In this document: positions 18,129 through 52,395 of the stretch, piece by piece
Numbering within the stretch: position 1 is the first letter of the stretch
Layout: each line of letters starts with the position of its first letter
From: Candidatus Buchananbacteria bacterium
GTDB taxonomy: Bacteria; Patescibacteriota; Patescibacteriia; CAIXNZ01
DNA: 64,000 nt
Assembly: GCA_014729025.1 (NCBI GenBank)
Contig: WJKP01000011.1
Location: forward strand, 6,500-70,499
Direction of reading: 5' to 3'
The notes under the pieces: generated by a model
Told to the model about the DNA's origin: nothing
What the model saw: only the letters and a program-made list of their open reading frames with translations
Databases searched by the model: none
Program-made: the position numbers and the translations under genes

Positions 18129-18169
18129 TATTATATAAAGAAAATTCTAATAGTAATTTAAAATTTATA

Positions 18170-18887: not shown

Positions 18888-20372
18888 ATGTTGGATTTAC
18901 AAACGATTAAAAAATTAAATGATAAACAGGCCGGATTCTTCCGTTTTAAAAAATTTGAAAATGACAATTATTTATTGACCAATGACATCGGCCATTACAT
19001 TTTTTTGCCAGAAACAGATTTTAAAAAATATATTCATGGCCGACTGGATAAAAAAAGCAAGCTTTATCAAAAATTAAAACAAAAATTATTTATTAAAGAT
19101 GAGGATTACCTTAAAAATTTCATTTGGCAGTATCGTCAGCGCAATTCTTTTTTGAAATACGGGCCGTCTTTGCATATTGTGGTTGTAACTTTAAGATGCA
19201 ATCATCGCTGTATTTATTGTCATGCCAGCGCTGCAACATGTAAAGATAAGAAATACGATATGGATCTAAAAACAGCCAAACTGGTAGTTGATACTATTTT
19301 TAAATCCAATAATAATGCGATTTGCATAGAATTTCAGGGTGGTGAACCGCTTTTAAACTGGCCAGTAGTAGAATTTATTATCAATTATGCTCAGGAAAAA
19401 AACAAATTAGAGAAAAAAAATTTAATTTTTCGGTTAGTTTCCAATTTTACTTTATTAGACCAAAAGAAAATGAATTTTTTAATGACTAATGAAGTTAATT
19501 TTTGTACATCCTTGGACGGTGACGAATCGACTCATAATTATAATCGTATTTTTACTGACGGTAATAGTTATAAAGAAACAGTAAAATGGATTAAAAAAAT
19601 CAATCAGGCTTATAAAGATAAATATAAAGGCAAAAAGAAAAATTATTATCGGGTAGGCGCTTTGATTACAGTAACTCGTAAAACTTTGGCTAATTATAAA
19701 CAGGTTATTGATACTTATATAAAGTTGGGTTTTCGGAACATTTATTTGCGTTATTTAAATCCTTTTGGCTTTGCTTTGCAAGCCAAAGAAAAAATATGGT
19801 ACAATCCTAAAGAATATATTGATTTTTATAAAAAAGCTTTTGATTATATTTTGGAAAAAAATTATCAAGGCAGGCATTTTTATGAAAGCATGGCAGCGAC
19901 TTATTTAAGAAAGATACTAAATCAGGAAGAACCGAATAATTTGGATTTCCGTTCGCCTTGCGGGGCAGTGATCGGTCAATTGGCTTATAATTACAATGGC
20001 GATGTTTATACTTGTGATGAGGGGCGGATGATTGCCAGGATGGGCGGTGATGAGATGTTTAAATTGGGTAATATAAAAAAAAATTCATTGGAAGAATTAA
20101 TTAATAATGATTTGTGTAAATCCGTTTGTTTTGCTTCGTGTGTTGATGGTTTACCGGGGTTTAGTGAAAACGTTTATAAACCTTATTTGGGTATTTGTCC
20201 GGTTTATAATTATTCCGTGCACGGTAATATTTTTCCAGCAATGAAAAATAATTTCCGCTGGCAAATAGATGAAGCAATTGTAGAATATTTATTTACTAAG
20301 CTTCAAAATAGAAAAAATCAGGATATTTTCCAAGAATGGGTCAAAAAATCAAAACCCCCGATTCCCAAATAA
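18888..20372 (+). CDS. Radical SAM/SPASM-domain peptide-modifying enzyme (anSME-like; candidate HxsB-type maturase)
   Basis: 'TLRCNHRCIYCHA' (CxxxCxxC). 'FQGGEPLL'. C-terminal SPASM-like Cys cluster 'SPCGAVIGQLAYNYNGDVYTCDEG...CKSVCFASC...GICPV'. Directly upstream of the repeat peptide. Confidence 0.8.
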   Translation: MLDLQTIKKLNDKQAGFFRFKKFENDNYLLTNDIGHYIFLPETDFKKYIHGRLDKKSKLYQKLKQKLFIKDEDYLKNFIWQYRQRNSFLKYGPSLHIVVVTLRCNHRCIYCHASAATCKDKKYDMDLKTAKLVVDTIFKSNNNAICIEFQGGEPLLNWPVVEFIINYAQEKNKLEKKNLIFRLVSNFTLLDQKKMNFLMTNEVNFCTSLDGDESTHNYNRIFTDGNSYKETVKWIKKINQAYKDKYKGKKKNYYRVGALITVTRKTLANYKQVIDTYIKLGFRNIYLRYLNPFGFALQAKEKIWYNPKEYIDFYKKAFDYILEKNYQGRHFYESMAATYLRKILNQEEPNNLDFRSPCGAVIGQLAYNYNGDVYTCDEGRMIARMGGDEMFKLGNIKKNSLEELINNDLCKSVCFASCVDGLPGFSENVYKPYLGICPVYNYSVHGNIFPAMKNNFRWQIDEAIVEYLFTKLQNRKNQDIFQEWVKKSKPPIPK

Positions 20373-20386
20373 TAAAATATAAATAT

Positions 20387-20839
20387 ATGAAAAATAAACT
20401 TCCCAAATTAAAGAAAAAATTTCAAGAATTTTTAAATGATGAAGAAGGGCGCATTACTAAAAAAGATATTATTATGCTAGGTATTGGCGTGACTGCTTTG
20501 GGTATTTTAGCCGAAGAAGCCGAAGCTTATAATTGCGGGCAATTGCCAGGCGGTTTAAGTAATAAAACCCCCAATCCGTGCGGTTCTCAACCTATGAGGC
20601 CAAATTCGCATACGACTTGCTGTAATATTAAACATTGTGGTAACAATGGTTACGAAAATGACAACTATAATGAGTTAATCGGCGATGTTAATCATAGTTG
20701 GGATCATAATAATTATATTCATAATAATGCCGAGGTTGGTACTCATTGTTCACATGGTTCGCACGGTTCGCATGGCTCGCATGGTTCGCACGGTTCACAT
20801 GGCTCGCATGGTTCGCACGGTTCGCATGGCTCATATTAA
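20387..20839 (+). CDS. His-Xaa-Ser-type repeat peptide/protein (candidate RiPP-like precursor, HxsA-like)
   Basis: Start at MKNKLP (20387). Basic N-terminus, one TM helix '[15 protein letters not shown]', a Cys/Asn-rich middle (6 Cys) and a C-terminal '[28 protein letters not shown]' (nine SHG units). Encoded by a 9-bp tandem repeat with synonymous codon variation. Confidence 0.7.
20749..20835 (+). repeat. 9-bp tandem repeat (about 9.5 copies) encoding the (Ser-His-Gly)n tail
   Basis: tcRcaYggY units: cat/cac, ggt/ggc, tcg/tca alternate. Synonymous variation argues for maintained coding repeats, not an artefact. Confidence 0.9.
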
Positions 20840-20842: not shown

Positions 20843-21808
20843 ATGTCTGAAAAATTTAAATTTTTAGAAATAGTTATTATTTTAACCCGTTCTTGTAATA
20901 AAAAAGAATGTAGTTATTGCCAGGTTAAAAAAGATTATAAAGTTAATAAACTGGAAAATAATTTATACCAATTAATTGAATTTTTGAAAAATAGTCCTGT
21001 AAAATCAGTTAGATTTTTAGGTGGTGAACCATTATTAAAATATAAGAAAATCAAGCAAATAATAAAAAATTTGCCCGATAAAAATTTTATAATCAATACG
21101 AATGGGTTGTTGTTAACTAAAGCCAAATCGGATTTTTTTAAAAAATACAATATCAAAATAATTTTAAGCCATGATGGTCAAGAACCCGATTTAAAAATTA
21201 ACAGATATTATACTGACAAGCAGATTGCGGTTATTAATGAAAATTTAATAAATTTAGAAAATTATCAAAAACAAACACAAATCAATTTAACCGTTTCACC
21301 GCAGACAATTGATAATTTATATAATAACCTGGCTTATATTTATAAGTTGGGTTTTAAAAAAATAAATATTTTGCCGGTTTTTTATCAGAACTGGCCACAG
21401 TCACAATTAAGACTATTAAAATTAGAGTTAAGTAAAATATTGGTTAATTTAAATAAATTCAAACAATTAGAATTGATTAATTTAAAATCATTCAGTTATT
21501 TGCCACTATTTAAAAATAGCTTATTAATAGATTGTGATGGTAATATTTTTTTCAGTACAGCCGTAATTGAAAAATTTTTCCACCAATACCGTAAGGAATT
21601 TATTAAGGCTAATATGATGATTTTATCAGAAAAAAAGAAAAATTATTCTGAGCTAAATTTTAAAGAAATTGAGGATTATAATAAGAAGATAGATAAATTG
21701 ATAATTAATGAGTTTTCTCACACAGTGATAACTTCTACGGAAAAAGTAAACAGGATTTTTGAAAATTTTATTAATAAATATTTAAAGATTAATAAAGCAA
21801 ATCTATGA
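20843..21808 (+). CDS. Radical SAM protein with non-canonical Cx4Cx2C cluster motif (candidate HxsC-type partner maturase)
   Basis: 'LTRSCNKKECSYC' (C-x4-C-x2-C). 'RFLGGEPLL'. 'INTNGLLL'. 4 nt downstream of the repeat peptide. Confidence 0.65.
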   Translation: MSEKFKFLEIVIILTRSCNKKECSYCQVKKDYKVNKLENNLYQLIEFLKNSPVKSVRFLGGEPLLKYKKIKQIIKNLPDKNFIINTNGLLLTKAKSDFFKKYNIKIILSHDGQEPDLKINRYYTDKQIAVINENLINLENYQKQTQINLTVSPQTIDNLYNNLAYIYKLGFKKINILPVFYQNWPQSQLRLLKLELSKILVNLNKFKQLELINLKSFSYLPLFKNSLLIDCDGNIFFSTAVIEKFFHQYRKEFIKANMMILSEKKKNYSELNFKEIEDYNKKIDKLIINEFSHTVITSTEKVNRIFENFINKYLKINKANL

Positions 21809-23304
21809 CACAAAAAATAAAAATTATTACATTGATCATAGTAATGATCATTTTAATTGTTGGCGGTTTATTATTATATTATTTTAAACCTGCTCCAAGT
21901 ATTAATCTGCCACCGCCAGTGGAAGAAGAAGAAAATTTGCAAACTAGATTGGAAAATGTCGTGGATTTTGGTTTTGTTAGTTCACCTTATACTTTGGATT
22001 CTATTTTAGAGTCAAGTGAATATCAGCAAATAAAACAAGAAGTTCATGATATTTGTTATGATGATAAAGGTAATTTGGGCTTGTATTTTTCTTGTTTAAG
22101 AGCTTTTGATACTTTTGCCGCCAATAAAATTAATAATCAATTACTTAATTTAAATCAGACGGATCAGCAGGATTTATTAACTAATTTGTATGAAATAGAT
22201 GAACGTTATGGGGTTCCAAGTCTGGATATTAGAACGCCTGAAATGATTTTTAGGACGCGAGAAGGTCAGGAATTAGTTAATTATTTTGAAGAAAACGCTA
22301 GTTTGGAGGATTTTAATTTTACCAATAATATTAATGAAATTTTTCAGCGCCAGTCTTTTAAAGAATGGTTAGATGATTTTCATGCTAAAAAACGTGAACT
22401 TTGTTATTTTCCTCCAGAAACTGATATTGCCAGAGATTGTGATTCTTTTACCACTCCTTATGCTAGTACTATTGTAATAAATTTTCTTTATCCGGAGAGA
22501 CAAGAAGAAGAAGTATTAAGTCTAGTTGGTGTTTTAGAACGAGGTATTTATAAAAGTGATGAAGATTTATTAGAAATATATAATAATTTATTGAGCCGTT
22601 ATTATAATGATTTTTTAGATAATTATGTTCAGGAAATGAAAAATAAATATCCGATTTTGGCTAGCGGACAAGTTACTGACTTGAATACTATTAATGATTT
22701 TCTCTTAGATCCTAACGATAGTTTAATTTATCAAGTCGGTAAATTATATTATTATGTGAATTATTTACATGTTGGTTCTAAAGGCAAGGTTAGGGATAAG
22801 CTCAACCAAAATTTAAATGATAAATTTGCAGAAGTAGCGGCTGATTTGGGTATTGACAATGACGATTTAAAGCAATATTTAATAGCAATTATTGGAGATG
22901 AAGAAGAAGTTATTGATCAATTAGTTAGTCAGTATAGAAACCTAAAAGTTAATTATCCAGCTAATGTTAATAAACTGGAAATCAATCCTACATTTATTTT
23001 TTGGGAAAGTATGGTCGAAGATCAGTATTATAATTATTTTACTGATGATTTTAATAATATTGATGCTTATTATGATGATTTGCGAACTTATAGATTGTAT
23101 ACTTATCTCTTGCTTTATTATAGCGATGACTATAAAAGTACTACTAATAGACAAGATGCTTTCGCTGAACGAGGTGAAGATGGCGGTCAAATGCAAAATG
23201 TATTTAAATTTAGCCGTTATATTGAAAGAGATGAATTGGATGAATTAATGAATTATTATAATAAAGAAAGAGGAACCATAATTGATTTGAGTGAAGGTCA
23301 TTAA
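21805..23304 (+). CDS. Membrane-anchored hypothetical protein
   Basis: N-terminal TM 'IITLIIVMIILIVGGLLLYYF', then a 470-aa soluble domain without recognisable motifs. Start overlaps the upstream stop (ATGA). Confidence 0.45.
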   Translation: MTQKIKIITLIIVMIILIVGGLLLYYFKPAPSINLPPPVEEEENLQTRLENVVDFGFVSSPYTLDSILESSEYQQIKQEVHDICYDDKGNLGLYFSCLRAFDTFAANKINNQLLNLNQTDQQDLLTNLYEIDERYGVPSLDIRTPEMIFRTREGQELVNYFEENASLEDFNFTNNINEIFQRQSFKEWLDDFHAKKRELCYFPPETDIARDCDSFTTPYASTIVINFLYPERQEEEVLSLVGVLERGIYKSDEDLLEIYNNLLSRYYNDFLDNYVQEMKNKYPILASGQVTDLNTINDFLLDPNDSLIYQVGKLYYYVNYLHVGSKGKVRDKLNQNLNDKFAEVAADLGIDNDDLKQYLIAIIGDEEEVIDQLVSQYRNLKVNYPANVNKLEINPTFIFWESMVEDQYYNYFTDDFNNIDAYYDDLRTYRLYTYLLLYYSDDYKSTTNRQDAFAERGEDGGQMQNVFKFSRYIERDELDELMNYYNKERGTIIDLSEGH

Positions 23305-23401
23305 AATTGATTAATTTCTAATATAAAAAACAGCCATAGATTATGGTTGTTTTTTATATTCAGATTGGGTATTATTATATATAGATTTGATTATTTTATT
23401 T

Positions 23402-24769
23402 ATGCCCCAAAATGAGAAAAAAATATTTAAGCAAAAATTTAAATTTTTAGATAAATATTTAGATTTATATAAAAAAGATTATTTGTCAGAATTTAAACTG
23501 GCCAAGGATTTTGTTTTTGAAAGGCTTAATCGCCGTAAAGAATGTACTTTTGATTATCCCCCTTATGTTTATTATAAAGAGGCAATAGATAAAGATCGTA
23601 ATCCTGATAACTTGTTTGACTTATGGCCGGATAAAACACCTTTTGTTATGTGTTTTTATTTTCCTTTCTGCACAAATAAATGCAGTTATTGTACTTTTAC
23701 AAATTTAAAGAAAAATATTGTCTCAGAATTTTCTGATTATTTGAAATATTATAAAAAAGAACTTTTGATGTATAAAGATTTGATTAAAAGAAATAAAATA
23801 AGCCATATTTATATTGGGGGTGGAACCCCGACTTTAATGACCGAGGAGCAATTAGAAGATTTATTAAAATTTATAAAAAAACATTTTTTACCTTATTTGC
23901 TTAAGCCTTTAGACGAGATAGAGTTTACCTGTGAAGCTTCTCCCCCGACTTTAACCGATAAAAAAATTAAAATATTAAAAAAATACGGTGTTAATACCAT
24001 TACTTTAGGTGTTCAGACACTAGATCCTAAGGTTTTAAAAACAATCGGCCGTTATCAGACAAAAGAACAGGTTATAAATGTTTTGCCTAAAATAATCAAG
24101 CTTTTTAAAGTCAATGTTGATATAATTGCCGGTTTACCAGCTAGTAATTTGCAGATTTTCGCTCAGGATTTAAATACGATAGTAAAATTAAAACCGCAGC
24201 ATTTAGGAGTTTATTTATTGACTTTATATGATCATTCTAAATTAGGTCAGTCTGATTATTATGTGCCACGTAAAGATTATCTGCAATATTATGATTTAGC
24301 TTATAAAACTTTATCAAAACAAGGTTATATTCATAGTACTTTTGAAGAATATTCATTGGATCATAAATATCGTTTAATGTATTTAGAAGATTTTCTGGAA
24401 AATAATCTGCATTTAACTACTGGTTTGGGTGACTCTGGTTTTACCGGAACTCATTGGTATAATAATACTGATGATATGGGTAAATATAAAAATTATATTA
24501 AAAATGGATTATTACCAATAGACAAGAAATATAAAATGACGATTGCGGATTTGCAAGTTAAATTTATTATTTATGGTCTTAGAAAATTAAATTTAAATAA
24601 AAAAGAATACCTTAAAATGTTTAATGAACCGATTGAAAAAAGATATTCTTTAGAAATAAACGCTTTAACTGATTTGGGTTTTTTGAAGCACGAGGGTAAT
24701 AAAATAGATTTAACCTATGAAGGCAAAAGAGATTTTGAGTTGATTATGCAGTTTTTTATGAGACTTTAG
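23402..24769 (+). CDS. HemN/HemW-like radical SAM protein
   Basis: 'FPFCTNKCSYCTF' CxxxCxxC. HemN-family 'IYIGGGTPTLM' (GGGTP) motif. C-terminal HemN_C-like region. Confidence 0.75.
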   Translation: MPQNEKKIFKQKFKFLDKYLDLYKKDYLSEFKLAKDFVFERLNRRKECTFDYPPYVYYKEAIDKDRNPDNLFDLWPDKTPFVMCFYFPFCTNKCSYCTFTNLKKNIVSEFSDYLKYYKKELLMYKDLIKRNKISHIYIGGGTPTLMTEEQLEDLLKFIKKHFLPYLLKPLDEIEFTCEASPPTLTDKKIKILKKYGVNTITLGVQTLDPKVLKTIGRYQTKEQVINVLPKIIKLFKVNVDIIAGLPASNLQIFAQDLNTIVKLKPQHLGVYLLTLYDHSKLGQSDYYVPRKDYLQYYDLAYKTLSKQGYIHSTFEEYSLDHKYRLMYLEDFLENNLHLTTGLGDSGFTGTHWYNNTDDMGKYKNYIKNGLLPIDKKYKMTIADLQVKFIIYGLRKLNLNKKEYLKMFNEPIEKRYSLEINALTDLGFLKHEGNKIDLTYEGKRDFELIMQFFMRL

Positions 24770-25553
24770 GCTCTAGTAAAAGCGAGTTATTAATAATTTT
24801 ATTGAAACGATTTTTTTCTATTTGTCGCGTTGATTTATAGGTTTGAAAATTCCCCTTATAAAATGAAGTATAATATTTATTTGTGAATTGCAATGGCTGA
24901 TTTTGTGGGTTTAGGCAATAATTGGGGCAATTTTTAATTATTTTTAAATAATTATTAGCTTGTTTGATTAAAGCTAGTGGACAAGTTCTACTTAAAGAAA
25001 AAATAATATAAGGTGTGTAAAGATTAATTTTAAGATTTTTAAGATTATCTAAAGCGATTCCTTGGCCCAGATTTTCAAGTTCAATTGTATCAATTTCATT
25101 TTTCAGTAACCAATCAGCAAATAAAGGATTATTAATTACATTATAAGTGCAAATTTTATCAAATTTAGTTTTAAAATGAGCATAATATGGATCTTTTTTT
25201 TGATTAGCAATAAAGATGCCGGCAATTAGTTTAATATTTTTATTTTTCAAATAATCCCACCCCCCCCAATCATTAAAAACTAATTCAAAAATATTTTCAG
25301 CTTGATTATTTTTTATGATTTTAATTATTTTATCTAAGTATTCAAAATAATTATTAGGTAATAAAGGCGTAAGTAAGGTTAGTCTTTTTTTATTTTTTTG
25401 GGATTTTTTTAAATATGATTGAAAAATTTCAGGTTGAGGTAATAAAAATGGGCAAGTATTTGAACCAATATAAAAATTATCATATTTCGGTAAATAAGTA
25501 TCAAATTGTTGAGGTGTTAAAATTTGAATAGCTTGGTTAGTCTTTTGGAGCAT
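24756..25553 (-). CDS. U32-family-like protein (possible UbiV/partner-type subunit)
   Basis: 265 aa. Overlaps the next U32 gene by 17 nt. N-terminal 'FYIGSNTCPF' resembles the start of the second U32 module in UbiU/UbiV-type pairs. Weak. Confidence 0.4.
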   Translation of the reverse strand: MLQKTNQAIQILTPQQFDTYLPKYDNFYIGSNTCPFLLPQPEIFQSYLKKSQKNKKRLTLLTPLLPNNYFEYLDKIIKIIKNNQAENIFELVFNDWGGWDYLKNKNIKLIAGIFIANQKKDPYYAHFKTKFDKICTYNVINNPLFADWLLKNEIDTIELENLGQGIALDNLKNLKINLYTPYIIFSLSRTCPLALIKQANNYLKIIKNCPNYCLNPQNQPLQFTNKYYTSFYKGNFQTYKSTRQIEKNRFNKIINNSLLLEPKVS

Positions 25554-26466
25554 AAGGGCAAATATGACAATAGTTTTTTTTAAAAATTATTTGATGTAAT
25601 AATTTAGCTTTTTTTTGAAATTGTAAATGATTAGGATAATTTTGAGCAATATTTTGAGCTTGCTTGATAAATAAAACCATCAGTCCTTTATCCCTGGCTG
25701 ATCTGTCACGGCCAACTATTTTTCCGCTAACAATATTTTTTTGTTCTTTAAAAAGTGATAAAAAACAGGCTCGGCATAGTGTTTTCTGACGAATAATTGT
25801 TTGGAAATTTTTTTCTAATTTTTTATCAATTGAAGTATAAAGCGGTTCTCTTTCACAAACAAATTCAATTCCGTCTGGTTTCATGAAATGGATTGATGAA
25901 CACAACCCATCAATATTAGAACAATTATCATCATAAATAAAAACTTCGAATTCAATTTGAGGCAGATTTTTAGCTAAATTACTAATCTCATTAATTGTCA
26001 GGTTGCGGGGAAGTATAATTCGGTTAATTTTAAAATTCTTACACCAAAATTGCGCTGATTTAGTATTTATAACTTGATCAAGCGAACTTAAATGAATGGG
26101 TAGACTTTTAGTTAATTTTCTTATAAGTTTAATAATAATAGGATCTTTGGCTATAATCGCGTCAGGCTTAATTTCTATGATTTTTTTTAGCTCATTATTT
26201 ATTTGATGTGTACCAGAAAAAATAGTATCAGTATTAAAAACAACATTAACTTTTTTATTATTTTTGCGAGCGGAATTAATGACTTGTTTGGCTTCTAAAA
26301 AAGAAGTAGTATTAGCCAAAATATTGTCCCGACGATTTAAATGGTTGTAAAATTGATTTTTTTTATGCCAATCTTGAGAAAAAATTCCCATATAAAATTC
26401 ATCTGCTCCGTTTTTTATTAAAGCAGGTAATTCAGTATAGCGTGAAATTGGGGCTAAGATTTTCAT
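25537..26466 (-). CDS. Peptidase U32 family protein (Fe-S RlhA/TrhP/UbiU-like)
   Basis: N-terminal 'MKILAPISRYTELPALIKNGADEFYMGIF' matches the U32 signature (M-x-LLAPAG-x-E-x-L-x-A-x-GADAVY-GG). Several downstream Cys could ligate a 4Fe-4S cluster. Confidence 0.65.
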   Translation of the reverse strand: MKILAPISRYTELPALIKNGADEFYMGIFSQDWHKKNQFYNHLNRRDNILANTTSFLEAKQVINSARKNNKKVNVVFNTDTIFSGTHQINNELKKIIEIKPDAIIAKDPIIIKLIRKLTKSLPIHLSSLDQVINTKSAQFWCKNFKINRIILPRNLTINEISNLAKNLPQIEFEVFIYDDNCSNIDGLCSSIHFMKPDGIEFVCEREPLYTSIDKKLEKNFQTIIRQKTLCRACFLSLFKEQKNIVSGKIVGRDRSARDKGLMVLFIKQAQNIAQNYPNHLQFQKKAKLLHQIIFKKNYCHICPYAPKD

Positions 26467-26524
26467 AAAATTTATAAGTTTATTATAATTAAATTACTTT
26501 ACTAAGGCAAATAAATTAATCATA

Positions 26525-27862
26525 ATGGTTAAAAATAATTTATTAATTAAGGAAAAAATAGCTAGTAAACCGAAGTATTGGCTTAGGTTGAGTTATGCTT
26601 GTAATAATAATTGTTTGTTTTGTTTAGATAAAGAGGCACAAAGTAATAATGAGCAATTTGTTTCAGAAAAAGATTTGCAATCAGAAATAAAGCAAGCTTT
26701 AAAAGAAGGATATCGGAAAATTATTTTAAGTGGAGGTGAACCAACAATTCATCCTCGTTTTTTGCATCTTGTGAAATTTTGTCAAAATTTAGGTTTTGAA
26801 AGAATTCAAATTATTACTAATGGCAGAATGTTAGCTTATCGTAAATTTGCCAGACAAACCTTGATAAGCGGGGTCAATGAAGTGACTTTTTCTTTGCATG
26901 GACTTGATGCACAAACCCACGATTATTTAGTCGGAGTTGAAGGAGCTTATGATCAATTAATTCAGGGGTTACATAATATTCGAGCGTCTAATTGCATTAT
27001 AAATATTGATATTGTACTTAATAAAAAAAATATTAAGCAGGTTCATGAGATTATTGATTTTTTTTCTAAAAATTATAGTATTTATGAATATGATCTTTTA
27101 CATTTAATACCTTTTGGTAATGCTTTTAAAAATTTATCAAATTTGGTTTTATCATATAAAGATTATCAGCAAAAAAGCTGGCAGAAAGTTTTGACTTTGG
27201 CAAAGAATGATAAGAGATATTTTATTTGGACTAACCGCTTGCCAGCCCAATATTTAGAAGACCATGAAGCTTTAATCCAAGACCCCCATAAATTATCGGA
27301 TGAATTAAAGGGGCGAAGGCATATGTTTGAAAATTATTTGCAAAATAACAAAGAGCTTGCTTGTAAAGATGGTCAACGTTGTGCTTTTTGTTTTTTGCAT
27401 GATTTTTGTTTGAAGTTATCTCAGTTTAAGGAGAATATTAATTATAAACCTAAATATAATATTAAATTTTTAACTCAAAAAAATTTAAATGAATTAAATT
27501 CTAATAATTTAATTGTAGCAATTAAAAATTTTGAGTTTTTGGAAAAGTTAAAAGACCAAACAGTTAATCTGGATGAGTTCAAGAATAAGACTAAAAACGG
27601 AAATTTAAAATTTATTAATTTACCTTATTGTCTAGCTGGCCAGAATAATCAAGTTGTTTATGATTTTTTGATTTATTTGCCAAAAGTTTTGAATAACAAA
27701 AAACAGATTGATTTGCATAAATTTGCCAAAATGTATATTAGCAATTTATATTATTTGAAATCAGTGAGGTGTGATGATTGTAAATACAATAATCAATGCG
27801 CTGGTTGGCATATTAATTATTTAAGATATTATGGTTTTAAAATTTTAAAACCAGTTAAATAG
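26525..27862 (+). CDS. Radical SAM protein, tandem paralog 1, with C-terminal Cx2Cx5C twitch-like motif and extra Cys-rich insert
   Basis: 'LRLSYACNNNCLFCLD'. 'LSGGEPTIHP'. 'ITNGRML'. C-terminal 'LPYCLAG...CDDCKYNNQCAGWHINYLRYYGF'. Confidence 0.8.
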   Translation: MVKNNLLIKEKIASKPKYWLRLSYACNNNCLFCLDKEAQSNNEQFVSEKDLQSEIKQALKEGYRKIILSGGEPTIHPRFLHLVKFCQNLGFERIQIITNGRMLAYRKFARQTLISGVNEVTFSLHGLDAQTHDYLVGVEGAYDQLIQGLHNIRASNCIINIDIVLNKKNIKQVHEIIDFFSKNYSIYEYDLLHLIPFGNAFKNLSNLVLSYKDYQQKSWQKVLTLAKNDKRYFIWTNRLPAQYLEDHEALIQDPHKLSDELKGRRHMFENYLQNNKELACKDGQRCAFCFLHDFCLKLSQFKENINYKPKYNIKFLTQKNLNELNSNNLIVAIKNFEFLEKLKDQTVNLDEFKNKTKNGNLKFINLPYCLAGQNNQVVYDFLIYLPKVLNNKKQIDLHKFAKMYISNLYYLKSVRCDDCKYNNQCAGWHINYLRYYGFKILKPVK

Positions 27863-27863
27863 T

Positions 27864-28751
27864 ATGAAAGAAAAAAGACTGGAAATTTTCATAACTTTTA
27901 AGTGTAATAACGATTGTCTTTTTTGCGTGGAAAAAACAAATAAGGATAAATATAAGGGTAAACAAATTTTTAGGGATAAACAGCATATTGAAGAAGAATT
28001 GAATAAATATCGCAAGCAAGGTTACACTTATTTGAATTTATTAGGCGGGGAACCTTTTTTAGCGAAAGATTTTTCGACTATTTTGCAGACCTCCAAATCC
28101 TTGGGTTTTGTTGTGGCCTTAGCGACAAATGCCAGTGTCTTATCTTCAGAAAAAATAGCCGAACAATATTTGCCATATATTGATGAATTAATTGTTTCAA
28201 TTCATGGCCATAATAAATTATTAATTAATCAGATTAGTCAAAATCCTAATTTGTATGATAAGTTAATTAAAGGTTTGAATAATATTAAAAAATATTTTAA
28301 AGGCCGGTTATTAAAAGCAAATTGCGTGATTAATAATTTAAATCATAAATATTTACTTGATATTTTAAAATTTATAAATAAATTCAATATAAAAGAAGTT
28401 AATTTAACTTATATGGATATTGATAAATATTGCCAAAATTATGTTGTTAAGATGGAAGATTTGCGTCCTTTGATTAAACCTTTGGTTGATTATAGTGAAC
28501 AACAAAATATGGTTTTGCGTTTTTCTGAATTACCATATTGTGTTTTAGGCGATTATTATTATCTGGCTAATGATTTGTATTTTCAAAATCGGGATAAGTA
28601 TTTTGTTGATGGCAAAAAAGACAAGGTTTATTTTTGGAAAAAATATAAAGGCAAAGTTTGTCAGGATTGCAATGTTACGGATATTTGTAAGGGGCTAAAC
28701 AAGGATTATTATAAACTTTATGGTGATAAAGAATTAATTGCTTTTCAATAA
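27864..28751 (+). CDS. Radical SAM protein, tandem paralog 2
   Basis: 'ITFKCNNDCLFCVEK'. 'LLGGEPFL'. C-terminal 'LPYCVLG...CQDCNVTDICKGLNKDYYKLYG'. Confidence 0.8.
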   Translation: MKEKRLEIFITFKCNNDCLFCVEKTNKDKYKGKQIFRDKQHIEEELNKYRKQGYTYLNLLGGEPFLAKDFSTILQTSKSLGFVVALATNASVLSSEKIAEQYLPYIDELIVSIHGHNKLLINQISQNPNLYDKLIKGLNNIKKYFKGRLLKANCVINNLNHKYLLDILKFINKFNIKEVNLTYMDIDKYCQNYVVKMEDLRPLIKPLVDYSEQQNMVLRFSELPYCVLGDYYYLANDLYFQNRDKYFVDGKKDKVYFWKKYKGKVCQDCNVTDICKGLNKDYYKLYGDKELIAFQ

Positions 28752-29700
28752 TATGAAAAATTTGGAAATAAATATTGGCAAGGCTTGTAATAATAAATGT
28801 AAATTTTGCATGAGTATAAATTCTATTCCTGAATTTTTGCGTTTTGCTGATTTTGCAGATTTAAAAAATGATTTAATTAAATACAAAAAACAAGGTTATG
28901 ATTCTTTGGGTTTTTTGGGCGGGGAAGTCACTTTGTACCCCAAATTAGTTGATTTGGTTAATTTAGCTAAAGAATTAGGATTTAAAGAAATTCATTTGAT
29001 TACTAATGGTCGGAATTTAAAAGACATGGCTTATACGCAGTCCTTGGTTGAAAATGGTATAACTCGTTTTTCTTTATCAATTCATAGTCATTGCGCCCAT
29101 GTAGAAGATGACTTGACTCAAGTTCCTGGTGGTTTTAAGGAAAAAATTCAAGGCCTTAAAAATTTATTAGAATTATCTAATCAAGGAATAATAAAAAAAG
29201 AGATTTGTTTGAATTTGGTTGTTAATAAAAAAAATTATCAAGATTTGGTAAAAACATTCAGTTTTTTTAGCAAATTAGGTGTTAAAAATTTTCGTTTTAA
29301 TTTTATGTGGCCCAGAGGTAATGCAAGTCAATATTTCAAAGAACTTTTGCTTTCTTATAAAGATTTTTTGCCTTATTTAAAGAAATTAATAAATTTAGCC
29401 AAAGTTTTAAGAGTACATTTAGTTTTTGAGGGATTGCCATTTTGTATTTTAAAAGATTTTGATCAAAAAGAAATTAAAAATTATATCGGTGAATTATTGG
29501 ATTTTAAAACTGATGTTTCTGATTTTAATTTTGATAAAAAAGAACGTTATGCTTTTAATTGGCAAGAACGCAAGAAAAACGAATTAAAAGAAAAAAGAGC
29601 AGAATGTGAGAAATGTTTTTATAATTCCATTTGTGAAGGTGTTTGGAAAGAATATATAAAATTTTATGGTTGGGAAGAATTTCAGCCAGTTATTAAATAA
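28738..29700 (+). CDS. Radical SAM protein, tandem paralog 3
   Basis: 'NIGKACNNKCKFCMS'. 'FLGGEVTLYP'. 'ITNGRNL'. C-terminal 'LPFCILKDF...CEKCFYNSICEGVWKEYIKFYGW'. Alternative start at 28753 (MKNLEI). Confidence 0.8.
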   Translation: MLFNNMKNLEINIGKACNNKCKFCMSINSIPEFLRFADFADLKNDLIKYKKQGYDSLGFLGGEVTLYPKLVDLVNLAKELGFKEIHLITNGRNLKDMAYTQSLVENGITRFSLSIHSHCAHVEDDLTQVPGGFKEKIQGLKNLLELSNQGIIKKEICLNLVVNKKNYQDLVKTFSFFSKLGVKNFRFNFMWPRGNASQYFKELLLSYKDFLPYLKKLINLAKVLRVHLVFEGLPFCILKDFDQKEIKNYIGELLDFKTDVSDFNFDKKERYAFNWQERKKNELKEKRAECEKCFYNSICEGVWKEYIKFYGWEEFQPVIK

Positions 29701-29702
29701 TT

Positions 29703-30632
29703 ATGGCAAATTTAGGTTATATTCAATTAAATAGAGTTTGTAATCAAGCCTGTCTTTTTTGTTCCAATCCTGATACTGGGGCAAGCTTAAATTTTATTGA
29801 ATTTAAGGATAAGGTTGCAGATTTGATTAAAAGAAATTATGATGGAGTTATTTTAACCGGCGGCGAGCCGACCTTGATAGATTATTTGCCAGAAGCAATT
29901 AAATTTTGCACTGAGAAGAAAATTAATTCTCGTTTAATTACTAATGGGCAAAATACAGCTAATTTTGAATATTTGAAAAAGTTAAAAGATTCTGGTTTGA
30001 ATCTGATGCATGTTTCTTTATATTCTTATAAAACTAAAATTCAAAATTATTTAAGTCAAAATAATGATTCTTATAATAATATTATTAAGACTTTAAAAAA
30101 TGCAACTAAATTAAATATCGTAATTAATATTAATACTGTAATTAATAAGTATAATGCTGATCATTTGGATAAAACCGTTTTTTTTATAATAAGAAATTTT
30201 CCGCAAATAAAGCATTTTGTTTTTAATAATCTTGACCCATATATGAATCGAGCTTCGCAGAATAAACATACCATACCAGGTTTATTTGATTTTGAAATAT
30301 CATTAAATAAAGCAATGCAAATATTATTTAAAAATAATAAAACTTTTCGGGTAGAACGAGTACCTTTATGTTATATGGGCGATTTTCCGCAGTTTAGCAC
30401 TGAAACAAGAAAAATTATTAAACAAGAAGAAAGAGTTGTTCATTTTTTGGATGAAAAGGGTCTGATTAGGCAGGATACCGATTCATTTAAATATAAAAAA
30501 GGTAAAGTTTGTAAAAGATGTAATTTAAATGATATTTGTGCCGGCTTATATTCTTTAGGTGAATATTTTGCGGAAAAAGAATTAAAGCCTGTCAAGAATG
30601 TTACTAAAGAACAAGTTAAAGCAAAATTATGA
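29703..30632 (+). CDS. Radical SAM protein, tandem paralog 4
   Basis: 'QLNRVCNQACLFCSN'. 'LTGGEPTL'. 'ITNGQN'. C-terminal 'VPLCYMGDF...CKRCNLNDICAGLYSLGEYF'. Confidence 0.8.
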   Translation: MANLGYIQLNRVCNQACLFCSNPDTGASLNFIEFKDKVADLIKRNYDGVILTGGEPTLIDYLPEAIKFCTEKKINSRLITNGQNTANFEYLKKLKDSGLNLMHVSLYSYKTKIQNYLSQNNDSYNNIIKTLKNATKLNIVININTVINKYNADHLDKTVFFIIRNFPQIKHFVFNNLDPYMNRASQNKHTIPGLFDFEISLNKAMQILFKNNKTFRVERVPLCYMGDFPQFSTETRKIIKQEERVVHFLDEKGLIRQDTDSFKYKKGKVCKRCNLNDICAGLYSLGEYFAEKELKPVKNVTKEQVKAKL

Positions 30633-31309: not shown

Positions 31310-31314
31310 ATTTT

Positions 31315-33111: not shown

Positions 33112-34623
33112 ATGATTGATATATATTATAAAAAAGAACTTCAGAGTATTATTGCACCCATGCAGATAGGGCGCCAATATTTTAATTGGGATTTTAAGAA
33201 AATCATTTTAAATCGTATCGGCCCCTATTTTTTACAGGAAATAATTTTTTATTTTTTAAAAGATAATAATAATGCGTTAATGATATATTTGAGAAAAAAT
33301 AATGAATATTATCAATTGGATTACCAAGTTTTAAATGATGAATTATCAGCAAAAAAAATTTTTATTTTATTTGATAATTTATTAATAAAAAAACAAATTA
33401 TTCTTGAAAGAAGTTTAGTTTTTGCAGCCTTGCAAAACAATGAAAAAAATTTTTTAAATCGATTATCTCAAATTGATGAGAAAGAATTAATCAAATTATT
33501 ATCATTACCAGAGATTAAATTTATAAATAATAATGTAGAAGATAGTGATATTAAAATTTTATTTGATTTTAATTTAAATAGTTTTGGCCTTGGCGATTAT
33601 TTGATGAGCGATAGGAGTTTAATTAAAAATGGTTCAAATAATTTTATAATAACTGATTTGTATTCAGTTTTTGAGGGTAATAAAAATTTCAATGCTATTT
33701 ATTCGGATTTGAATTTATGTTTTTCTGAAAATGGGTTATTAGATAAGACCGTTGAACTTATTGATTATAACACCAAGCTTGATTATTTGGATGAAAATTT
33801 AAAAAATACTTATCATTTATTTTTATATAATCAATTTTATAAATTAATAAAAAATTCTTTAAAATTATTTAATTTTAAAGAATACCAGATGAATCCTCAA
33901 AAAGGGATTGATTTGTTATTATCAGAAATTAATAAAATAAAGAAAATAAATATACATTCCTTAGATTCCATGAATGATGAGAAAAATGAATTATATTTAA
34001 ATAATAAAGAATTTATAAAAATTATTGGTAAGCAAATTAAAAAAAATAAAAAAATCATTGGGATTAGCGCAAATTATGCCGAAGGTTTTCCTGATAATGC
34101 GCCTAAAGGCTGGGCCTTGGCTAATTGGTTGGAATTAATTAATTTATTAAGTCAAAAATTTAATGATTTGCATTTTTTTTTATTGCCAGTTAATAATGAA
34201 GATATTTTAAATATAGAAATATCTGAAAATAATTATCATTTTAAAATATTTAATAATTTAAAAGATAAAGTTGATTTGGTTTTTATTGATGAATTGATTA
34301 AAAAATATATTTTTAAAAAAAGCATATTTGATAATATTTTATTAAAAAATACAAGTTTAGAATTTTTAAAAACAGCAATAAGTTTTTGTGATTTGGTAAT
34401 AGCTTTGGATAGTGCTCCGGCTCATATGGCTGCTTCGCTAGAAGTGCCTGTTGTTTCTTTGTTTAGTGAAAAAGGCGATATTAGAAAATTCAAGCCATTG
34501 GGTGATAAATCTTTTACCTTGCATAAAGAAAAAGAAGGGGAATATTTAAATATTAATAATATTTCAGCTCAAGAAGTTTTTGATCTATTAATTAAAGAAA
34601 ATTTAATTATCAAACGAAAATAA
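33112..34623 (+). CDS. Glycosyltransferase family 9-like protein (heptosyltransferase / BAHT-type GT-B fold)
   Basis: C-terminal domain 'KIIGISANYAEGFPDNAPKGWALANWLELINLL...LVIALDSAPAHMAASLEVPVVSLFS' matches the GT9 donor-binding motif (D-S/T-G-P-M-H-L-A-A-A...P-V-V-A-L-F-G). The N-terminal 300 aa are divergent. Confidence 0.55.
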   Translation: MIDIYYKKELQSIIAPMQIGRQYFNWDFKKIILNRIGPYFLQEIIFYFLKDNNNALMIYLRKNNEYYQLDYQVLNDELSAKKIFILFDNLLIKKQIILERSLVFAALQNNEKNFLNRLSQIDEKELIKLLSLPEIKFINNNVEDSDIKILFDFNLNSFGLGDYLMSDRSLIKNGSNNFIITDLYSVFEGNKNFNAIYSDLNLCFSENGLLDKTVELIDYNTKLDYLDENLKNTYHLFLYNQFYKLIKNSLKLFNFKEYQMNPQKGIDLLLSEINKIKKINIHSLDSMNDEKNELYLNNKEFIKIIGKQIKKNKKIIGISANYAEGFPDNAPKGWALANWLELINLLSQKFNDLHFFLLPVNNEDILNIEISENNYHFKIFNNLKDKVDLVFIDELIKKYIFKKSIFDNILLKNTSLEFLKTAISFCDLVIALDSAPAHMAASLEVPVVSLFSEKGDIRKFKPLGDKSFTLHKEKEGEYLNINNISAQEVFDLLIKENLIIKRK

Positions 34624-34626: not shown

Positions 34627-35901
34627 ATGGAAATTGGGATTAGAGATAAAAATGAAAACGATTTAGTCAAAAAAATTATTAATTATAATAAAATTAATAA
34701 TTTAGTAAAACCGATAAAAAGATATGAAATTACGGCGATTGATTTGGTTAATAAAAATTTATATTTAAAAATAAAAAATAACGAGACAGGTGATGTTTTG
34801 CGAATAGTTTTAACTACCAATAAGAGGAAAGATTTATTAAGTATAGATAATAAATTGTTTTTTTACTATTACTCAGATTATTTGAATAAATTTGATAATT
34901 TGCTTTGTAAAAATATAATGAAAATCATGTATAGTAATATTAATAATAATCGAGAATTATTTAATACTGCCATTGATTTAATAAAAAATGAAAATATTTT
35001 TGATAGAGATTTTGAATATTTTGAGGATGAAGATACCGGGCGTAAATTACAAGTAAATAAAAAAAATATAGCGAAATTAGAAAAAAATATTAATTTAAAT
35101 TTAATAAAAAACAAATGGCCCAATATGAATGTTGCTAATGAAATATTTAGTTATGATGAAACAAGACTTCGTTATAAATTAATTGATAAAAATAATCAAG
35201 CTTATTTTTTGAAAATTTTTACCGGTGCCAATAATGATATTGATAATTTAATAAAAATAAATAAATTATTAGCTGATAAAATAAATGTGCCGAAGGTTAT
35301 TGATTTTCAAAAAGATGATAAGTTTTATTGGGTATTATATGAATTTTTAGATCCCGCCAAGATTCTTGATAAACAAAAAATAAATTTAGCAGTTAAAGAA
35401 ATAGTAAAATTTCATAATGTTAAGTTTGATATGGGAAATCAACCAGAAGGTAGTAAATTTAATAAAGTTAAAAATAATTATTATTTATATAAAGAAGAAA
35501 TTATTGATAAGGATATTTTAGAAAAAGCATTAAATTATTTGCAGAATAATCTTGGCCCAAAAGGTTGGTGCCATTTTGATTTAGAAATGAGGCATTTTAT
35601 TTATTCTAATGATAAAATGTATTTAACTGATATTGATTCTATTAAATATGATTATATAGTTTTAGATCTCGGTTTATTTATTCGCTATTTACTTAAAAAA
35701 AATCAGTCGCATTTCATAGCGCCATTAATTGAATTATATTTAAAAAATAATAAGTCTTATAAATTTGATAAAAAAATATTATTTTATGCCACTATTATTA
35801 TGGTATATTATAAAGAGGATGAAAATTTAATTAGTAATCATAATTTACATAAAAATTTGAATCAAGAAATTAATTTAATTAGAAATTATTTTAATATTTA
35901 A
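34627..35901 (+). CDS. Kinase-like protein (APH/WaaP/Kdo-kinase-like phosphotransferase fold)
   Basis: 'GWCHFDLEMRHFIYSNDKMYLTDIDSIKYDYIVLDLG' gives H-x-D catalytic loop plus a DID metal-binding motif. Paralogous to the C-terminal domain of the rSAM fusion. Confidence 0.5.
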   Translation: MEIGIRDKNENDLVKKIINYNKINNLVKPIKRYEITAIDLVNKNLYLKIKNNETGDVLRIVLTTNKRKDLLSIDNKLFFYYYSDYLNKFDNLLCKNIMKIMYSNINNNRELFNTAIDLIKNENIFDRDFEYFEDEDTGRKLQVNKKNIAKLEKNINLNLIKNKWPNMNVANEIFSYDETRLRYKLIDKNNQAYFLKIFTGANNDIDNLIKINKLLADKINVPKVIDFQKDDKFYWVLYEFLDPAKILDKQKINLAVKEIVKFHNVKFDMGNQPEGSKFNKVKNNYYLYKEEIIDKDILEKALNYLQNNLGPKGWCHFDLEMRHFIYSNDKMYLTDIDSIKYDYIVLDLGLFIRYLLKKNQSHFIAPLIELYLKNNKSYKFDKKILFYATIIMVYYKEDENLISNHNLHKNLNQEINLIRNYFNI

Positions 35902-35903: not shown

Positions 35904-37412
35904 ATGATACAATTAATTATAAATTATTCTATTGTTTCGCTTATTATTATAATAGGTTTGATAGTTACCCTTACTGATTTTCGAGAAAGCAGAATAAAGA
36001 ATAAATATATTAAATTAGGGATTTATATAGGGTTAATTTATTATATTATATTATTTTTCATTACTGTTTTGTCGCGTTTTTATGCTTTATCTTATTATTT
36101 CCCCCCTCAATATTATTTATTTATTTTAATTAATACTTTAATTGGTTTTATTTTGGCTTTTATTTTGTGGAATCTTAAATTATGGGCCGGAGGCGATGCC
36201 AAGCTTTTTACCCTTTATGTTTTTTTAATACCTTTATTTTTTTATTCAGAAGCATATTTGCCATTTTTCCCAGCTATTAATTTATTAATAAATATAATAA
36301 TTCCTATTTTTATTTATTTATTAATTAAGATGTTAATTTATCCAATCAGCTTATTTATTAGTCATTTGAAAAATCCCAAATTGGTCAAGGAATATTTTAA
36401 AAAACATAGAGAACAAAATAAGTTTGATAAATCAAAAATAAAAGAATATCTAAATAGTGGTCTTAGTTTTTTATTAATTTTAATTTTTTTCCAATTATTA
36501 AGAAATAAAGTTAATGAATTTTTAGATCCTTATTTGGGTAATATGGTTTATGCCACTTATTTTTTTATGGGTTTTGTTATTTTTAAACCATTGAGAGTTT
36601 TTTTAAAAGAAAAAGTTTTGCTTGTTTTAATTGGTGTATCGGCTTATTTTATTATTAGTTACTTTTATTTTCATGAACAGGTTTTTGCAGAATTGCATAA
36701 AGTTTTTGCCTTGCAAATGATTTTTATGATGTCTTATTTTTATATTTTTAAATATGGCCGAGCTTTGGGACAATTTTTATATAATTCAGCAGAAGTTAAA
36801 ATGGTTCCGGTTGAAGAATTAAGTTCTGGCAATTATATTAATAAAGGTTACATAAGAAAAATAATGGGGAATAGGAATAATTTAGATAATTTCAAACAAG
36901 ATATTGAAAATGTTTTGTCAGAAGAAGAACATAATAACTTAGCCCAATTGATTGAGGAAAAGGTGGGGCAAACTGGTAATGAAAAAAAACAATATAAGAT
37001 AATTTCTGTTTTCAGGAATTTACGTCCAGAGAGTGCTTTTAAAATTGCAAAACAGATATTTGAATATAAAAAACAAAAAAAACAAAGAAAAGAATTACTG
37101 GAAACAGTAAAAATAAAATTAAATGATAAGCAGAATAAGACCTTAGATAATATTTTAAATAACAATGATGATATTGATAATTTTTTAAAAAAAATTAAGG
37201 GGAAATTAAGCGAAGAACAAGCTCTAAGATTAAAAAGCATGATTGAAGAAAGGAATAAAGAGGTTGAGGATCAGGGCTTAGAGCCGATTAAACATATTAT
37301 ACTTCATAAAACATTTTCTTTTGCGCCTTTTATGTTATTGGGCGTTATAATTACTTTATTAACCAAAAGTTCAATTATTCATTTGATTTATGAATATATT
37401 TTGCACCGTTAG
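35904..37412 (+). CDS. A24-family (prepilin peptidase/TadV-like) aspartic peptidase homolog with long C-terminal Lys/Glu-rich coiled-coil domain
   Basis: First catalytic-Asp motif 'LTDFRESRIKN' (cf. D-L-R-x-R-R-I-P-N). Second 'LWAGGDAKLFTLYVFLIPL' (cf. GGGDVKLL). About 8 TM helices in the first 290 aa, then a 200-aa charged cytoplasmic tail and a final TM helix. Confidence 0.6.
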   Translation: MIQLIINYSIVSLIIIIGLIVTLTDFRESRIKNKYIKLGIYIGLIYYIILFFITVLSRFYALSYYFPPQYYLFILINTLIGFILAFILWNLKLWAGGDAKLFTLYVFLIPLFFYSEAYLPFFPAINLLINIIIPIFIYLLIKMLIYPISLFISHLKNPKLVKEYFKKHREQNKFDKSKIKEYLNSGLSFLLILIFFQLLRNKVNEFLDPYLGNMVYATYFFMGFVIFKPLRVFLKEKVLLVLIGVSAYFIISYFYFHEQVFAELHKVFALQMIFMMSYFYIFKYGRALGQFLYNSAEVKMVPVEELSSGNYINKGYIRKIMGNRNNLDNFKQDIENVLSEEEHNNLAQLIEEKVGQTGNEKKQYKIISVFRNLRPESAFKIAKQIFEYKKQKKQRKELLETVKIKLNDKQNKTLDNILNNNDDIDNFLKKIKGKLSEEQALRLKSMIEERNKEVEDQGLEPIKHIILHKTFSFAPFMLLGVIITLLTKSSIIHLIYEYILHR

Positions 37413-52299: not shown

Positions 52300-52303
52300 A
52301 TAA

Positions 52304-52341: not shown

Positions 52342-52395
52342 TGACGCAACCTTGCTAGGGAGTCCAGGCTGGTTAGTAGGCAAACTGTAGATAAC

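Follow-up and report, generated by a model that had tools for sequence, protein, structure and literature searches.

The locus described here raises the question of why two overlapping genes are encoded antisense within a long array of radical S-adenosylmethionine (SAM) enzyme genes, and what their products might contribute to the surrounding pathway. The locus lies within a window of 64,000 nucleotides (the whole stretch of DNA that was analysed; positions 6,500 to 70,499 of contig WJKP01000011.1) from Candidatus Buchananbacteria, a bacterium of the Candidate Phyla Radiation. The two genes encode a Peptidase_U32 protein, here called U32-A, and a companion protein, here called the partner (U32-B), which are 100% identical to GF365_00710 and GF365_00705 of a metagenome-assembled genome (MAG) of this organism. 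The conserved unit was found to be this pair together with four HxsC-like radical SAM enzymes, and it is separable from the HxsD-B-A genes encoded nearby. From comparison with known systems, the pair is probably a heterodimer of the UbiU/UbiV type which acts as an O2-independent Fe-S oxidase or hydroxylase within the HxsC-like radical SAM module.

Both antisense open reading frames (ORFs) are present exactly as given in the preliminary description with regard to coordinates, overlap and strand (Table 1). They are also, as had been claimed, the sole minus-strand genes of the locus, a statement which holds between positions 66 and 50,991 for ORFs of at least 120 amino acids with nested opposite-strand ORFs excluded. 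The ATG of the partner is located 17 nt inside the 3' end of the U32-A gene, an overlap which suggests translational coupling, and the end of the partner gene shares 14 nt (24756-24769) with the convergent HemN-like radical SAM gene. Overlapping or abutting U32-A and partner genes were also found in L001, L002, L003 and L005 (loci retrieved from other genomes are denoted by L and a number). Both ORFs are more than chance, as U32-A has a strong Pfam match and homologues of both are kept as an adjacent pair elsewhere.

The assignment of U32-A to the Peptidase_U32 family is based on its match to the Pfam model PF01136, which gave 101.4 bits against a gathering threshold of 22.4 (E=6e-29, residues 88-278). 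Its N-terminus, MKILAPISRYTELPALIKNGADEFYMGIF, previously noted as a U32 signature, aligns with the N-terminus of Escherichia coli UbiU, and hhalign relates the two proteins with a probability of 99.4% and E=1.5e-21 at an identity of approximately 22%. The best match among the NCBIfam models was TrhP (NF011996; 90.8 bits against a cut-off of 534, E=8.5e-26, residues 58-190 only), and the UbiU model (NF047963) gave 80 bits against a cut-off of 440. As both scores are below cut-off, U32-A is placed outside the curated TrhP and UbiU families. A search with models of both U32 domains had been proposed; only the Peptidase_U32 model was matched, and only by U32-A, with the U32 C-terminal domain (PF16325) being absent from U32-A and the partner in the Pfam scan. 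This domain was found in the more distant matches P0010 and P0013. Homologues are very rare, with 11 matches at E<=1e-5 among 5.8 billion proteins. The AlphaFold2 model of U32-A (mean predicted local distance difference test score, pLDDT, of 81) is a TIM barrel, with the U32 structure 5D88 ranked third in its Foldseek list.

The four cysteines of UbiU have been shown by mutagenesis to ligate a [4Fe-4S] cluster (PMC6747719). The cysteine arrangement of UbiV has likewise been shown by experiment to bind one such cluster. The U32 Fe-S family motif is CX6CX15CX3/4C, with variants in UbiU (CX6CX16CX38C) and UbiV (CXnCX12CX3C) (PMC6747719). U32-A possesses eight cysteines (142, 182, 189, 204, 231, 234, 300, and 303), of which C182, C189, C204, and C231, spaced C182-X6-C189-X14-C204-X26-C231 (CX6CX14CX26C), are the putative [4Fe-4S] ligands. 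The suggestion that the cluster ligands could be located by alignment with UbiU and UbiV was borne out for three of these, with BLASTP pairing C182/C189/C231 with UbiU C169/C176/C232. It was borne out only approximately for C204, which is located in a variable loop a few residues from UbiU C193.

The partner had been proposed as a possible second U32-like subunit. No match to it was found in Pfam, NCBIfam, PADLOC or the sequences of the Protein Data Bank (PDB), either as a single sequence or as a profile, and PF01136 gave nothing on the partner and seven homologues even at E<=10. Searches of PDB chain sequences with U32-A, the partner and the partner profile likewise returned nothing meaningful, and the defence models of PADLOC-DB v2 had no match to U32-A, the partner or their homologues in a gut-metagenome cassette (see below). 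The proposal is nevertheless favoured by the fold, by weak profile matches and by the cysteines. Against the PDB, Foldseek ranks 5D88 first for the AlphaFold2 model of the partner (E=3.2e-5, TM-score 0.51/0.54); this model has an overall pLDDT of 69, a confident barrel (residues 1-180) and a poor Cys-rich tail. With an alignment of 149 partner sequences, hhalign gave E=2.4e-4 for UbiU, 6.4e-4 for the U32-A family and 3.3e-3 for UbiV, compared with 0.26 for a radical SAM control, and in the alignments with U32 proteins both beta2-beta4 and the ND.G/D.G motif are in register. The comparison with UbiV (E=0.002-0.003, probability 10-13%) covers the N-terminal 92-98 columns only and places YIGSNTC of the partner on YLGEAVC (C39) of UbiV.

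Four of the five cysteines of the partner (C34, C191, C209, and C213) are invariant in alignments of 8 and 12 homologues, as are Y28, G30, N94, D95, G97, G112, E158, and P181. The cysteines follow a CXnCX17CX3C pattern in which the first is far upstream, directly after the second strand, and this resembles the arrangement in UbiV (C39, then C180, C193, and C197). In the HMM (hidden Markov model) alignment, C34 is placed on UbiV C39 and the CX3C on UbiV C193/C197. The top structural match, the in-register weak profile matches and the UbiV-type invariant cysteines together point to the partner being a strongly diverged U32-fold protein of the UbiV type which is missed by current HMM libraries. 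A word-indexed protein search returned two partner homologues only. It took a profile and an exhaustive search to bring the family to light, the latter giving 1,684 clusters at 50% identity with E<=1e-3 (1,086 with E<=1e-10).

In every locus retrieved via closer relatives of either protein, the partner gene abuts or overlaps a U32-A-like gene. Such paired loci include L001-L007, L009-L015, L018, L020-L025, L028, L030, and L032-L034, in both gene orders, and their hosts include Bacillota, Eubacteriales, Omnitrophota, Thermodesulfobacteriota, Elusimicrobiales and a single amplified genome (SAG) of Nanoarchaeota. When U32 proteins were clustered at 70% identity, 28 of the 37 clusters had an adjacent partner. 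Among those lacking a partner is a gut clade with 42 members, whose U32 proteins of 325 amino acids are solitary; three tandem U32 paralogues (351, 351, and 386 amino acids) with no partner gene detected were also observed in L031 (2180-5361). A scan of viral contigs revealed no relatives. On the basis of gene linkage, the overlap and the UbiU/UbiV precedent, U32-A and the partner are expected to form a heterodimer.

The pair is also linked to radical SAM genes, and the possibility raised previously that it merely interrupts the cluster is not supported. Among loci with at least 6 kb of flanking sequence, a radical SAM gene occurs within 5 kb of 13 of the 21 partner-bearing U32 clusters and of none of the nine partner-less ones (Fisher p=0.003). 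In L001, the locus of the closest homologue, from another Buchananbacteria MAG (pair at 55% identity), the antisense layout is identical, with a 57-bp divergent gap and a 14-nt overlap with the HemN-like gene, and orthologues of the genes at 26525, 27864, 28738, 29703, and 31315 and of the GT9-like glycosyltransferase gene follow beyond the pair. In L002, the next closest (pair at 46% identity), the pair is divergent from the gene for a protein of 615 amino acids, beyond which are orthologues of 28738 and 29703. This 615-amino-acid protein (L002 3479-5326) has two radical SAM domains and joins the orthologues of 26525-27862 and 27864-28751 in a single chain, a fusion suggesting that these two enzymes work together.

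On the partner side, L002 has genes for phosphoribosyl pyrophosphate synthetase, a sigma factor and a tRNA-guanine transglycosylase in place of the HemN-like gene or HxsA, HxsB and HxsD. As L002 keeps the pair and the radical SAM enzymes but has no HxsA/B/D on the side where these are encoded in the window, the pair belongs to a multi-radical-SAM module rather than to the canonical four-gene HXS system. The expected co-occurrence of U32 pairs with Hxs-like loci was therefore seen with arrays of HxsC-like radical SAM enzymes and not with Hxs systems as such. A specific association of the pair with Hxs precursors was considered and dropped, as no ORF with HxS repeats was found in any other retrieved locus, that of the window being the sole one. 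An RNA-modification context independent of radical SAM or tailoring genes, which would have spoken for an unrelated function, was not seen in L001-L003 (33-55% identity); the tRNA-guanine transglycosylase gene of L002 is located approximately 2.5 kb past the pair, where it lies on the other strand in the company of housekeeping genes.

The 58-bp gap between U32-A and the first HxsC-like gene had been described as a divergent promoter region. Sigma-70-like hexamers do occur on both of its strands, the best being TTGCCT-17-TATAAT (26510-26482, minus strand). However, their number is not above that in shuffled sequences (22 compared with 16.0 +/- 3.4) in this AT-rich DNA (27% GC), and a promoter and terminator scan of 24400-26800 gave no excess over shuffles. 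The coding-strand GC skew of both antisense genes is negative (-0.22 and -0.08 in the window). The third-position skew of the pair ranges from -0.12 to -0.38 in the window (24756-26466), L001 (5892-7611) and L002 (5351-7025), compared with +0.10 to +0.43 for neighbouring genes in those loci. Where the pair runs in the direction of its neighbours, as in L034 and L005, its whole-gene skew is positive, and the third-position skew, computed for L034 only, is approximately zero. Other minus-strand genes of the window (50983-55679) behave differently, having positive coding skew, and the strand bias of the pair thus seems to follow that of the enclosing operon; dominant antisense read-through transcription may be the cause. 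The inverted skew also brought up the possibility that the two ORFs are spurious, which was rejected given the Pfam match and the conserved homologues.

Several retrieved loci place the pair within other gene clusters. A cassette from gut metagenomes (L004 5835-11635; L009 6648-12491; L012/L013 6602-12465) consists of genes for a radical SAM-SPASM enzyme, a GNAT-like protein of 180 amino acids, an AMP-dependent ligase, a carrier protein, the partner, the U32 protein and a protein of approximately 145 amino acids. It is often found beside mobile or defence genes (relaxase, recombinase, uracil-DNA glycosylase or RNA-repair genes), although no PADLOC match was obtained. In L014 (4291-11814; also L015) a 3-deoxy-D-arabino-heptulosonate 7-phosphate (DAHP) synthase gene (TIGR00034, 213.6 bits against 173.2) heads a cassette which continues with genes for a FemAB-like acetyltransferase, a protein of 249 amino acids, a radical SAM-SPASM enzyme, a further radical SAM enzyme, the partner and the U32 protein. 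This cassette adjoins TIR-domain and type I restriction-modification genes, and could be linked both to shikimate/prephenate supply and to a defence island.

One Eubacteriales locus has the pair between a radical SAM-SPASM gene and a B12-radical SAM gene. In the Nanoarchaeota SAG (L022 10955-12424), a U32 gene is directly followed by one in which the partner domain is joined to a SAM-dependent methyltransferase domain, an arrangement which fits hydroxylation followed by O-methylation. A low-GC cluster (L005 903-20927; also L006 and L007) possesses two pairs of U32 and partner genes and no fewer than six genes for radical SAM enzymes, along with QueC-like, nucleoside phosphorylase, phosphoribosyltransferase, HD, pyridoxal phosphate-dependent decarboxylase and serine hydroxymethyltransferase genes, two glycosyltransferase genes and TsaD and Sua5-like genes; its appearance is that of a pathway for a nucleoside-type natural product or for base hypermodification. 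In another low-GC cluster (L034 11803-13032), the gene for an Nramp-family divalent metal transporter is located between the U32 pair and two radical SAM genes.

The closest likeness among characterised systems is to UbiU and UbiV, which form a heterodimer with one [4Fe-4S] cluster per subunit and are needed for three O2-independent hydroxylations of the ubiquinone ring (PMC6747719, PMC10990095, PMC11574389). Both systems consist of two adjacent genes, for a clear U32 protein (CX6CX14-16CXnC) and a shorter partner with an upstream Cys followed by CX12-17CX3C, and in both the U32 C-terminal domain is lacking (309 and 265 amino acids here, 331 and 292 in UbiU and UbiV). They differ in that the partner here is too diverged for PF01136, that no UbiT or ubi gene is nearby (no SCP2/UbiT or ubi genes occur among the annotated ORFs across the window), and that genes for radical SAM enzymes, for a glycosyltransferase and for kinases surround the pair. 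A bacterium of the Candidate Phyla Radiation is, moreover, not expected to make ubiquinone. RlhA is needed for 5-hydroxycytidine (ho5C) and TrhP for 5-hydroxyuridine (ho5U), and an in vitro assay is not yet available (PMC6747719, PMC10990095, PMC11574389). RlhA and TrhP, which act on 23S rRNA (ho5C2501) and tRNA (ho5U34), respectively, share with U32-A a U32 domain with an Fe-S Cys motif, TrhP being the top NCBIfam model. However, the score of U32-A is far below cut-off, PF16325 is lacking and the gene context is not one of RNA modification. As the curated thresholds are not reached, the pair, though UbiU/UbiV-like, is not a member of the UbiU, TrhP or RlhA families and probably not of the UbiV family. 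The only solved U32 structure, that of Mk0906 (PDB 5D88), which ranks first for the partner model and near the top for the U32-A model, shows 10-12% identity and a TM-score of approximately 0.5.

Canonical HXS (HxsA-D) is an antiphage system, of which, according to a survey of 2026, more than 99.8% of examples consist of HxsA-D only, with no U32 protein described, and 99.7% occur in Pseudomonadota (Nat Commun 2026, PMC13128918). The window resembles it in having HxsD, HxsD-like and HxsB proteins above curated cut-offs (HxsB 515 against 370, HxsD 58.8 against 50) and an HxS-repeat protein, which scores below cut-off against the HxsA models. It differs in its nine radical SAM enzymes, none of which reaches the HxsC cut-off (best 127.9 against 267.9), and in its U32 pair, GT9-like enzyme and kinases. 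The pair is not a component of the canonical HXS antiphage system.

As a mechanism, the heterodimer of U32-A and the partner would hold two [4Fe-4S] clusters, each ligated by four cysteines, and would act within the adjacent module of HxsC-like radical SAM enzymes (26525-33105). There it may oxygenate an electron-rich sp2 carbon, either in the substrate of the module or in an intermediate, and the GT9-like glycosyltransferase and APH-like kinases might then decorate the new hydroxyl position. The candidate substrate, as the only one visible in the window, is the HxsA-like (HGS)9Y protein, which would be modified via the His imidazole or the Tyr ring; these rings resemble the known U32 targets, which are sp2 ring carbons. 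In the UbiU/V-dependent hydroxylation of ubiquinone the oxygen is donated by prephenate, which RlhA and TrhP also need in order to function (PMC10990095), a finding with which the linkage to DAHP synthase in L014 agrees. Together with the methyltransferase fusion of L022, this linkage fits hydroxylation followed by derivatisation, with a shikimate-derived donor.

A more specific version of this proposal, which would make the pair the first Fe-S hydroxylase of the U32 family devoted to the maturation of a ribosomal protein or peptide or to a natural product built by radical SAM enzymes, is advanced only tentatively and is rather unlikely. In it, His or Tyr of the (HGS)9 HxsA-like protein, or a radical SAM intermediate, would be hydroxylated to give a handle for the GT9-like enzyme and the kinases. 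A number of observations weigh against a hydroxylase acting in this module. Bacteria of the Candidate Phyla Radiation usually lack the shikimate pathway, so that prephenate may be unavailable as a donor, and no aro genes were found in the 64-kb window. A peptide substrate is doubtful because L002 has the pair and the radical SAM enzymes with no HxS-repeat protein nearby, and for canonical HxsA the single modification on record, which affects an SHRSS motif, amounts to +8 Da, not +16 (PMC13128918). No member of the subfamily of the pair has a characterised function. The sequence link between the partner and U32 proteins is weak (hhalign probabilities of 10-44%), and the Cys-rich loops of both AlphaFold2 models have pLDDT <50. 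Finally, the loci were retrieved by similarity to the window proteins, which biases the sampling, and about one third of the partner-bearing U32 clusters with adequate flanks are without a nearby radical SAM gene.

An alternative that we consider unlikely is that the pair serves the radical SAM enzymes as an Fe-S redox module and inserts no oxygen, working through electron transfer, dehydrogenation or dehydroxylation. What the clusters do in U32 enzymes is not settled, electron transfer being one possibility (PMC10990095, PMC11574389). The nine radical SAM enzymes of the locus need a reductant, the metal transporter of L034 lies inside a related cluster, and the organism may lack prephenate. 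Against this, every characterised U32 Fe-S protein has been tied to hydroxylation, and the TIM-barrel body and the conserved N94, D95, G97, and E158 of the partner suggest a substrate pocket rather than a simple ferredoxin. The methyltransferase::partner fusion, too, fits an order of hydroxylation and then methylation.

That the pair is instead a housekeeping RNA hydroxylase of the TrhP/RlhA kind (compare the two-gene U32 system for tRNA ho5U in Bacillus subtilis), present in the cluster by chance, appears distinctly improbable. TrhP is the best NCBIfam match of U32-A, the characterised U32 functions beyond ubiquinone synthesis are RNA hydroxylations only, and the pair lies on the strand opposite to every neighbour. 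This match is, however, partial and far below its cut-off, and the U32 C-terminal domain is missing. Retention of the antisense position beside the same orthologous radical SAM genes at 55 and 46% identity and the enrichment of radical SAM adjacency for partner-bearing U32 proteins also speak against it, as does the rarity of homologues, which is not what a housekeeping gene would lead one to expect.

It is very unlikely that only U32-A is an enzyme and that the 265-amino-acid product is an unrelated accessory protein (a chaperone, scaffold or substrate-binding protein). The failure of every HMM library to recognise the partner, its low hhalign probabilities and the poor modelling of its Cys-rich C-terminal third would agree with this, but 5D88 ranks higher for the partner than for U32-A, a bona fide U32 protein, the U32 alignments are in register, and the four invariant cysteines have UbiV spacing. 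Least credible of all is a true U32 peptidase ("collagenase-like PrtC") cutting the leader or (HGS)9 repeat of the HxsA-like protein: U32 was originally defined as a peptidase family, a Joint Genome Institute (JGI) source gives a homologue that protease name, the repeat resembles collagen weakly and HxsA maturation includes N-terminal processing (PMC13128918), but the conserved four-Cys motifs match Fe-S ligands and not a protease catalytic set, related loci carry the pair without any HxS or collagen-like ORF, and the cluster has a gene of its own for an A24-like membrane peptidase.

Table 1. Features of the radical SAM locus, in order of their position in the window
Feature	Position	Strand	Remarks
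HxsD	18098-18646	+	TIGR03976, 58.8 bits vs 50
HxsD-like protein	18651-18851	+	NF038315, 81.4 bits vs 41
HxsB radical SAM/SPASM maturase	18888..20372	+	TIGR03978, 514.9 bits vs cut-off 370
HxsA-like precursor or effector	20336..20839	+	NF038313 and NF038309 below cut-off
Radical SAM enzyme, 321 aa	20843..21808	+	CX4CX2C motif
499-aa protein, N-terminal membrane anchor, no known family	21805..23304	+	Orthologue fragment in L001
HemN-like (class C type) radical SAM enzyme	23387..24769	+	Orthologue L001_455 (46%)
Partner (U32-B)	24756..25553	-	265 aa, predicted cryptic U32-fold protein, UbiV-like
Overlap of U32-A stop region and partner start	25537..25553	-	17 nt
U32-A	25537..26466	-	309 aa, Peptidase_U32, UbiU-like, predicted TIM barrel
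Divergent intergenic region, U32-A/best HxsC-like radical SAM gene	26467..26524		58 bp
HxsC-like radical SAM enzyme, 445 aa	26525..27862	+	Pfam Radical_SAM; TIGR03977, 127.9 bits vs 267.9 cut-off
Small radical SAM enzyme, 295 aa	27864..28751	+	Orthologues L001_294 (47%), C-terminal half of L002_615 (36%)
HxsC4-like radical SAM enzyme, 320 aa	28738..29700	+	NF038332, 179 bits vs 500; L001_315 (61%), L002_303 (46%)
HxsC-like radical SAM enzyme, 309 aa	29703..30632	+	Orthologues L001_312 (73%), L002_197p (60%)
Short radical SAM protein, 226 aa	30629..31309	+	No clear L001 orthologue (best ~26% identity)
Radical SAM enzyme with fused APH-like kinase region, 596 aa	31315..33105	+	N-terminal half 79% identical to L001_297
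GT9-like (heptosyltransferase family) glycosyltransferase	33112..34623	+	PF01075, E=1.5e-10; orthologue fragment L001_137p
APH/CotS-like kinase	34627..35901	+	PF01636, E=3e-9
Polytopic membrane protein, prepilin-peptidase (A24)-like N-terminal region	35904..37412	+	PF01478, 28.2 bits vs 26.5

The six HxsC/HxsC4-like genes at 26525-33105 all remain below curated cut-offs. The first of these has orthologues in L001_585 (52%) and in the N-terminal half of L002_615 (48%), and the L001 orthologue of the last (297 amino acids) is without the kinase part. The HemN-like gene, which overlaps the partner in L001 also, is absent from L002. The radical SAM enzyme at 20843-21808 has a CX4CX2C motif (SCNKKECSYC) compared with the canonical CX3CX2C. 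The HxsA-like protein has a hydrophobic segment at its N-terminus, a middle part rich in Cys and, at its C-terminus, HCS(HGS)9Y; it is below the cut-off of the NCBIfam HxsA3 and HxsA4 models, and its repeat, read as Gly-X-Y, gives a weak match to Pfam Collagen (E=2e-4, below cut-off). Housekeeping genes flank the cluster, those for DnaK, IspG and DnaJ at one end and that for CysS at the other. A TraG/VirD4/HerA-like ATPase (40069-42669) and an Eco57I-like type IIG restriction-modification enzyme (46672-49539) are encoded downstream of the cluster, in the midst of housekeeping genes. A LOOT RNA (Rfam RF03000; 79.6 bits against a gathering threshold of 46.4) was found at 56016-56142 on the plus strand, upstream of the ORF at 56189.

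No prior description was found in the literature on U32 proteins with radical SAM enzymes, RiPPs (peptides made on ribosomes and modified after translation) or gene clusters, or on the partner family. To our knowledge, U32 Fe-S enzymes are the only hydroxylases thought to take oxygen from an organic donor (prephenate), and the substrates to which we know them to have been tied so far are of two kinds, ubiquinone precursors and RNA bases. The conservation of the pair beside radical SAM arrays points to O2-independent oxidative tailoring in biosynthetic or protein-maturation clusters. The radical SAM clusters with the pair also carry glycosyltransferases, kinases or carrier-protein ligases, and range from the Candidate Phyla Radiation to gut Firmicutes and Nanoarchaeota. 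For the HXS field, the window may represent an expanded Candidate Phyla Radiation variant of the antiphage system with many extra maturation enzymes. Annotation of the large partner family, missed by HMM libraries, would flag heterodimeric U32 enzymes genome-wide. Should the pair prove to be a peptide or natural-product hydroxylase, it would add a third U32 substrate class after quinones and RNA, and, if the host is without prephenate, another oxygen donor would be implied. The partner family (approximately 1,700 clusters) would then mark widespread, unrecognised heterodimeric anaerobic hydroxylases in clusters rich in radical SAM enzymes.

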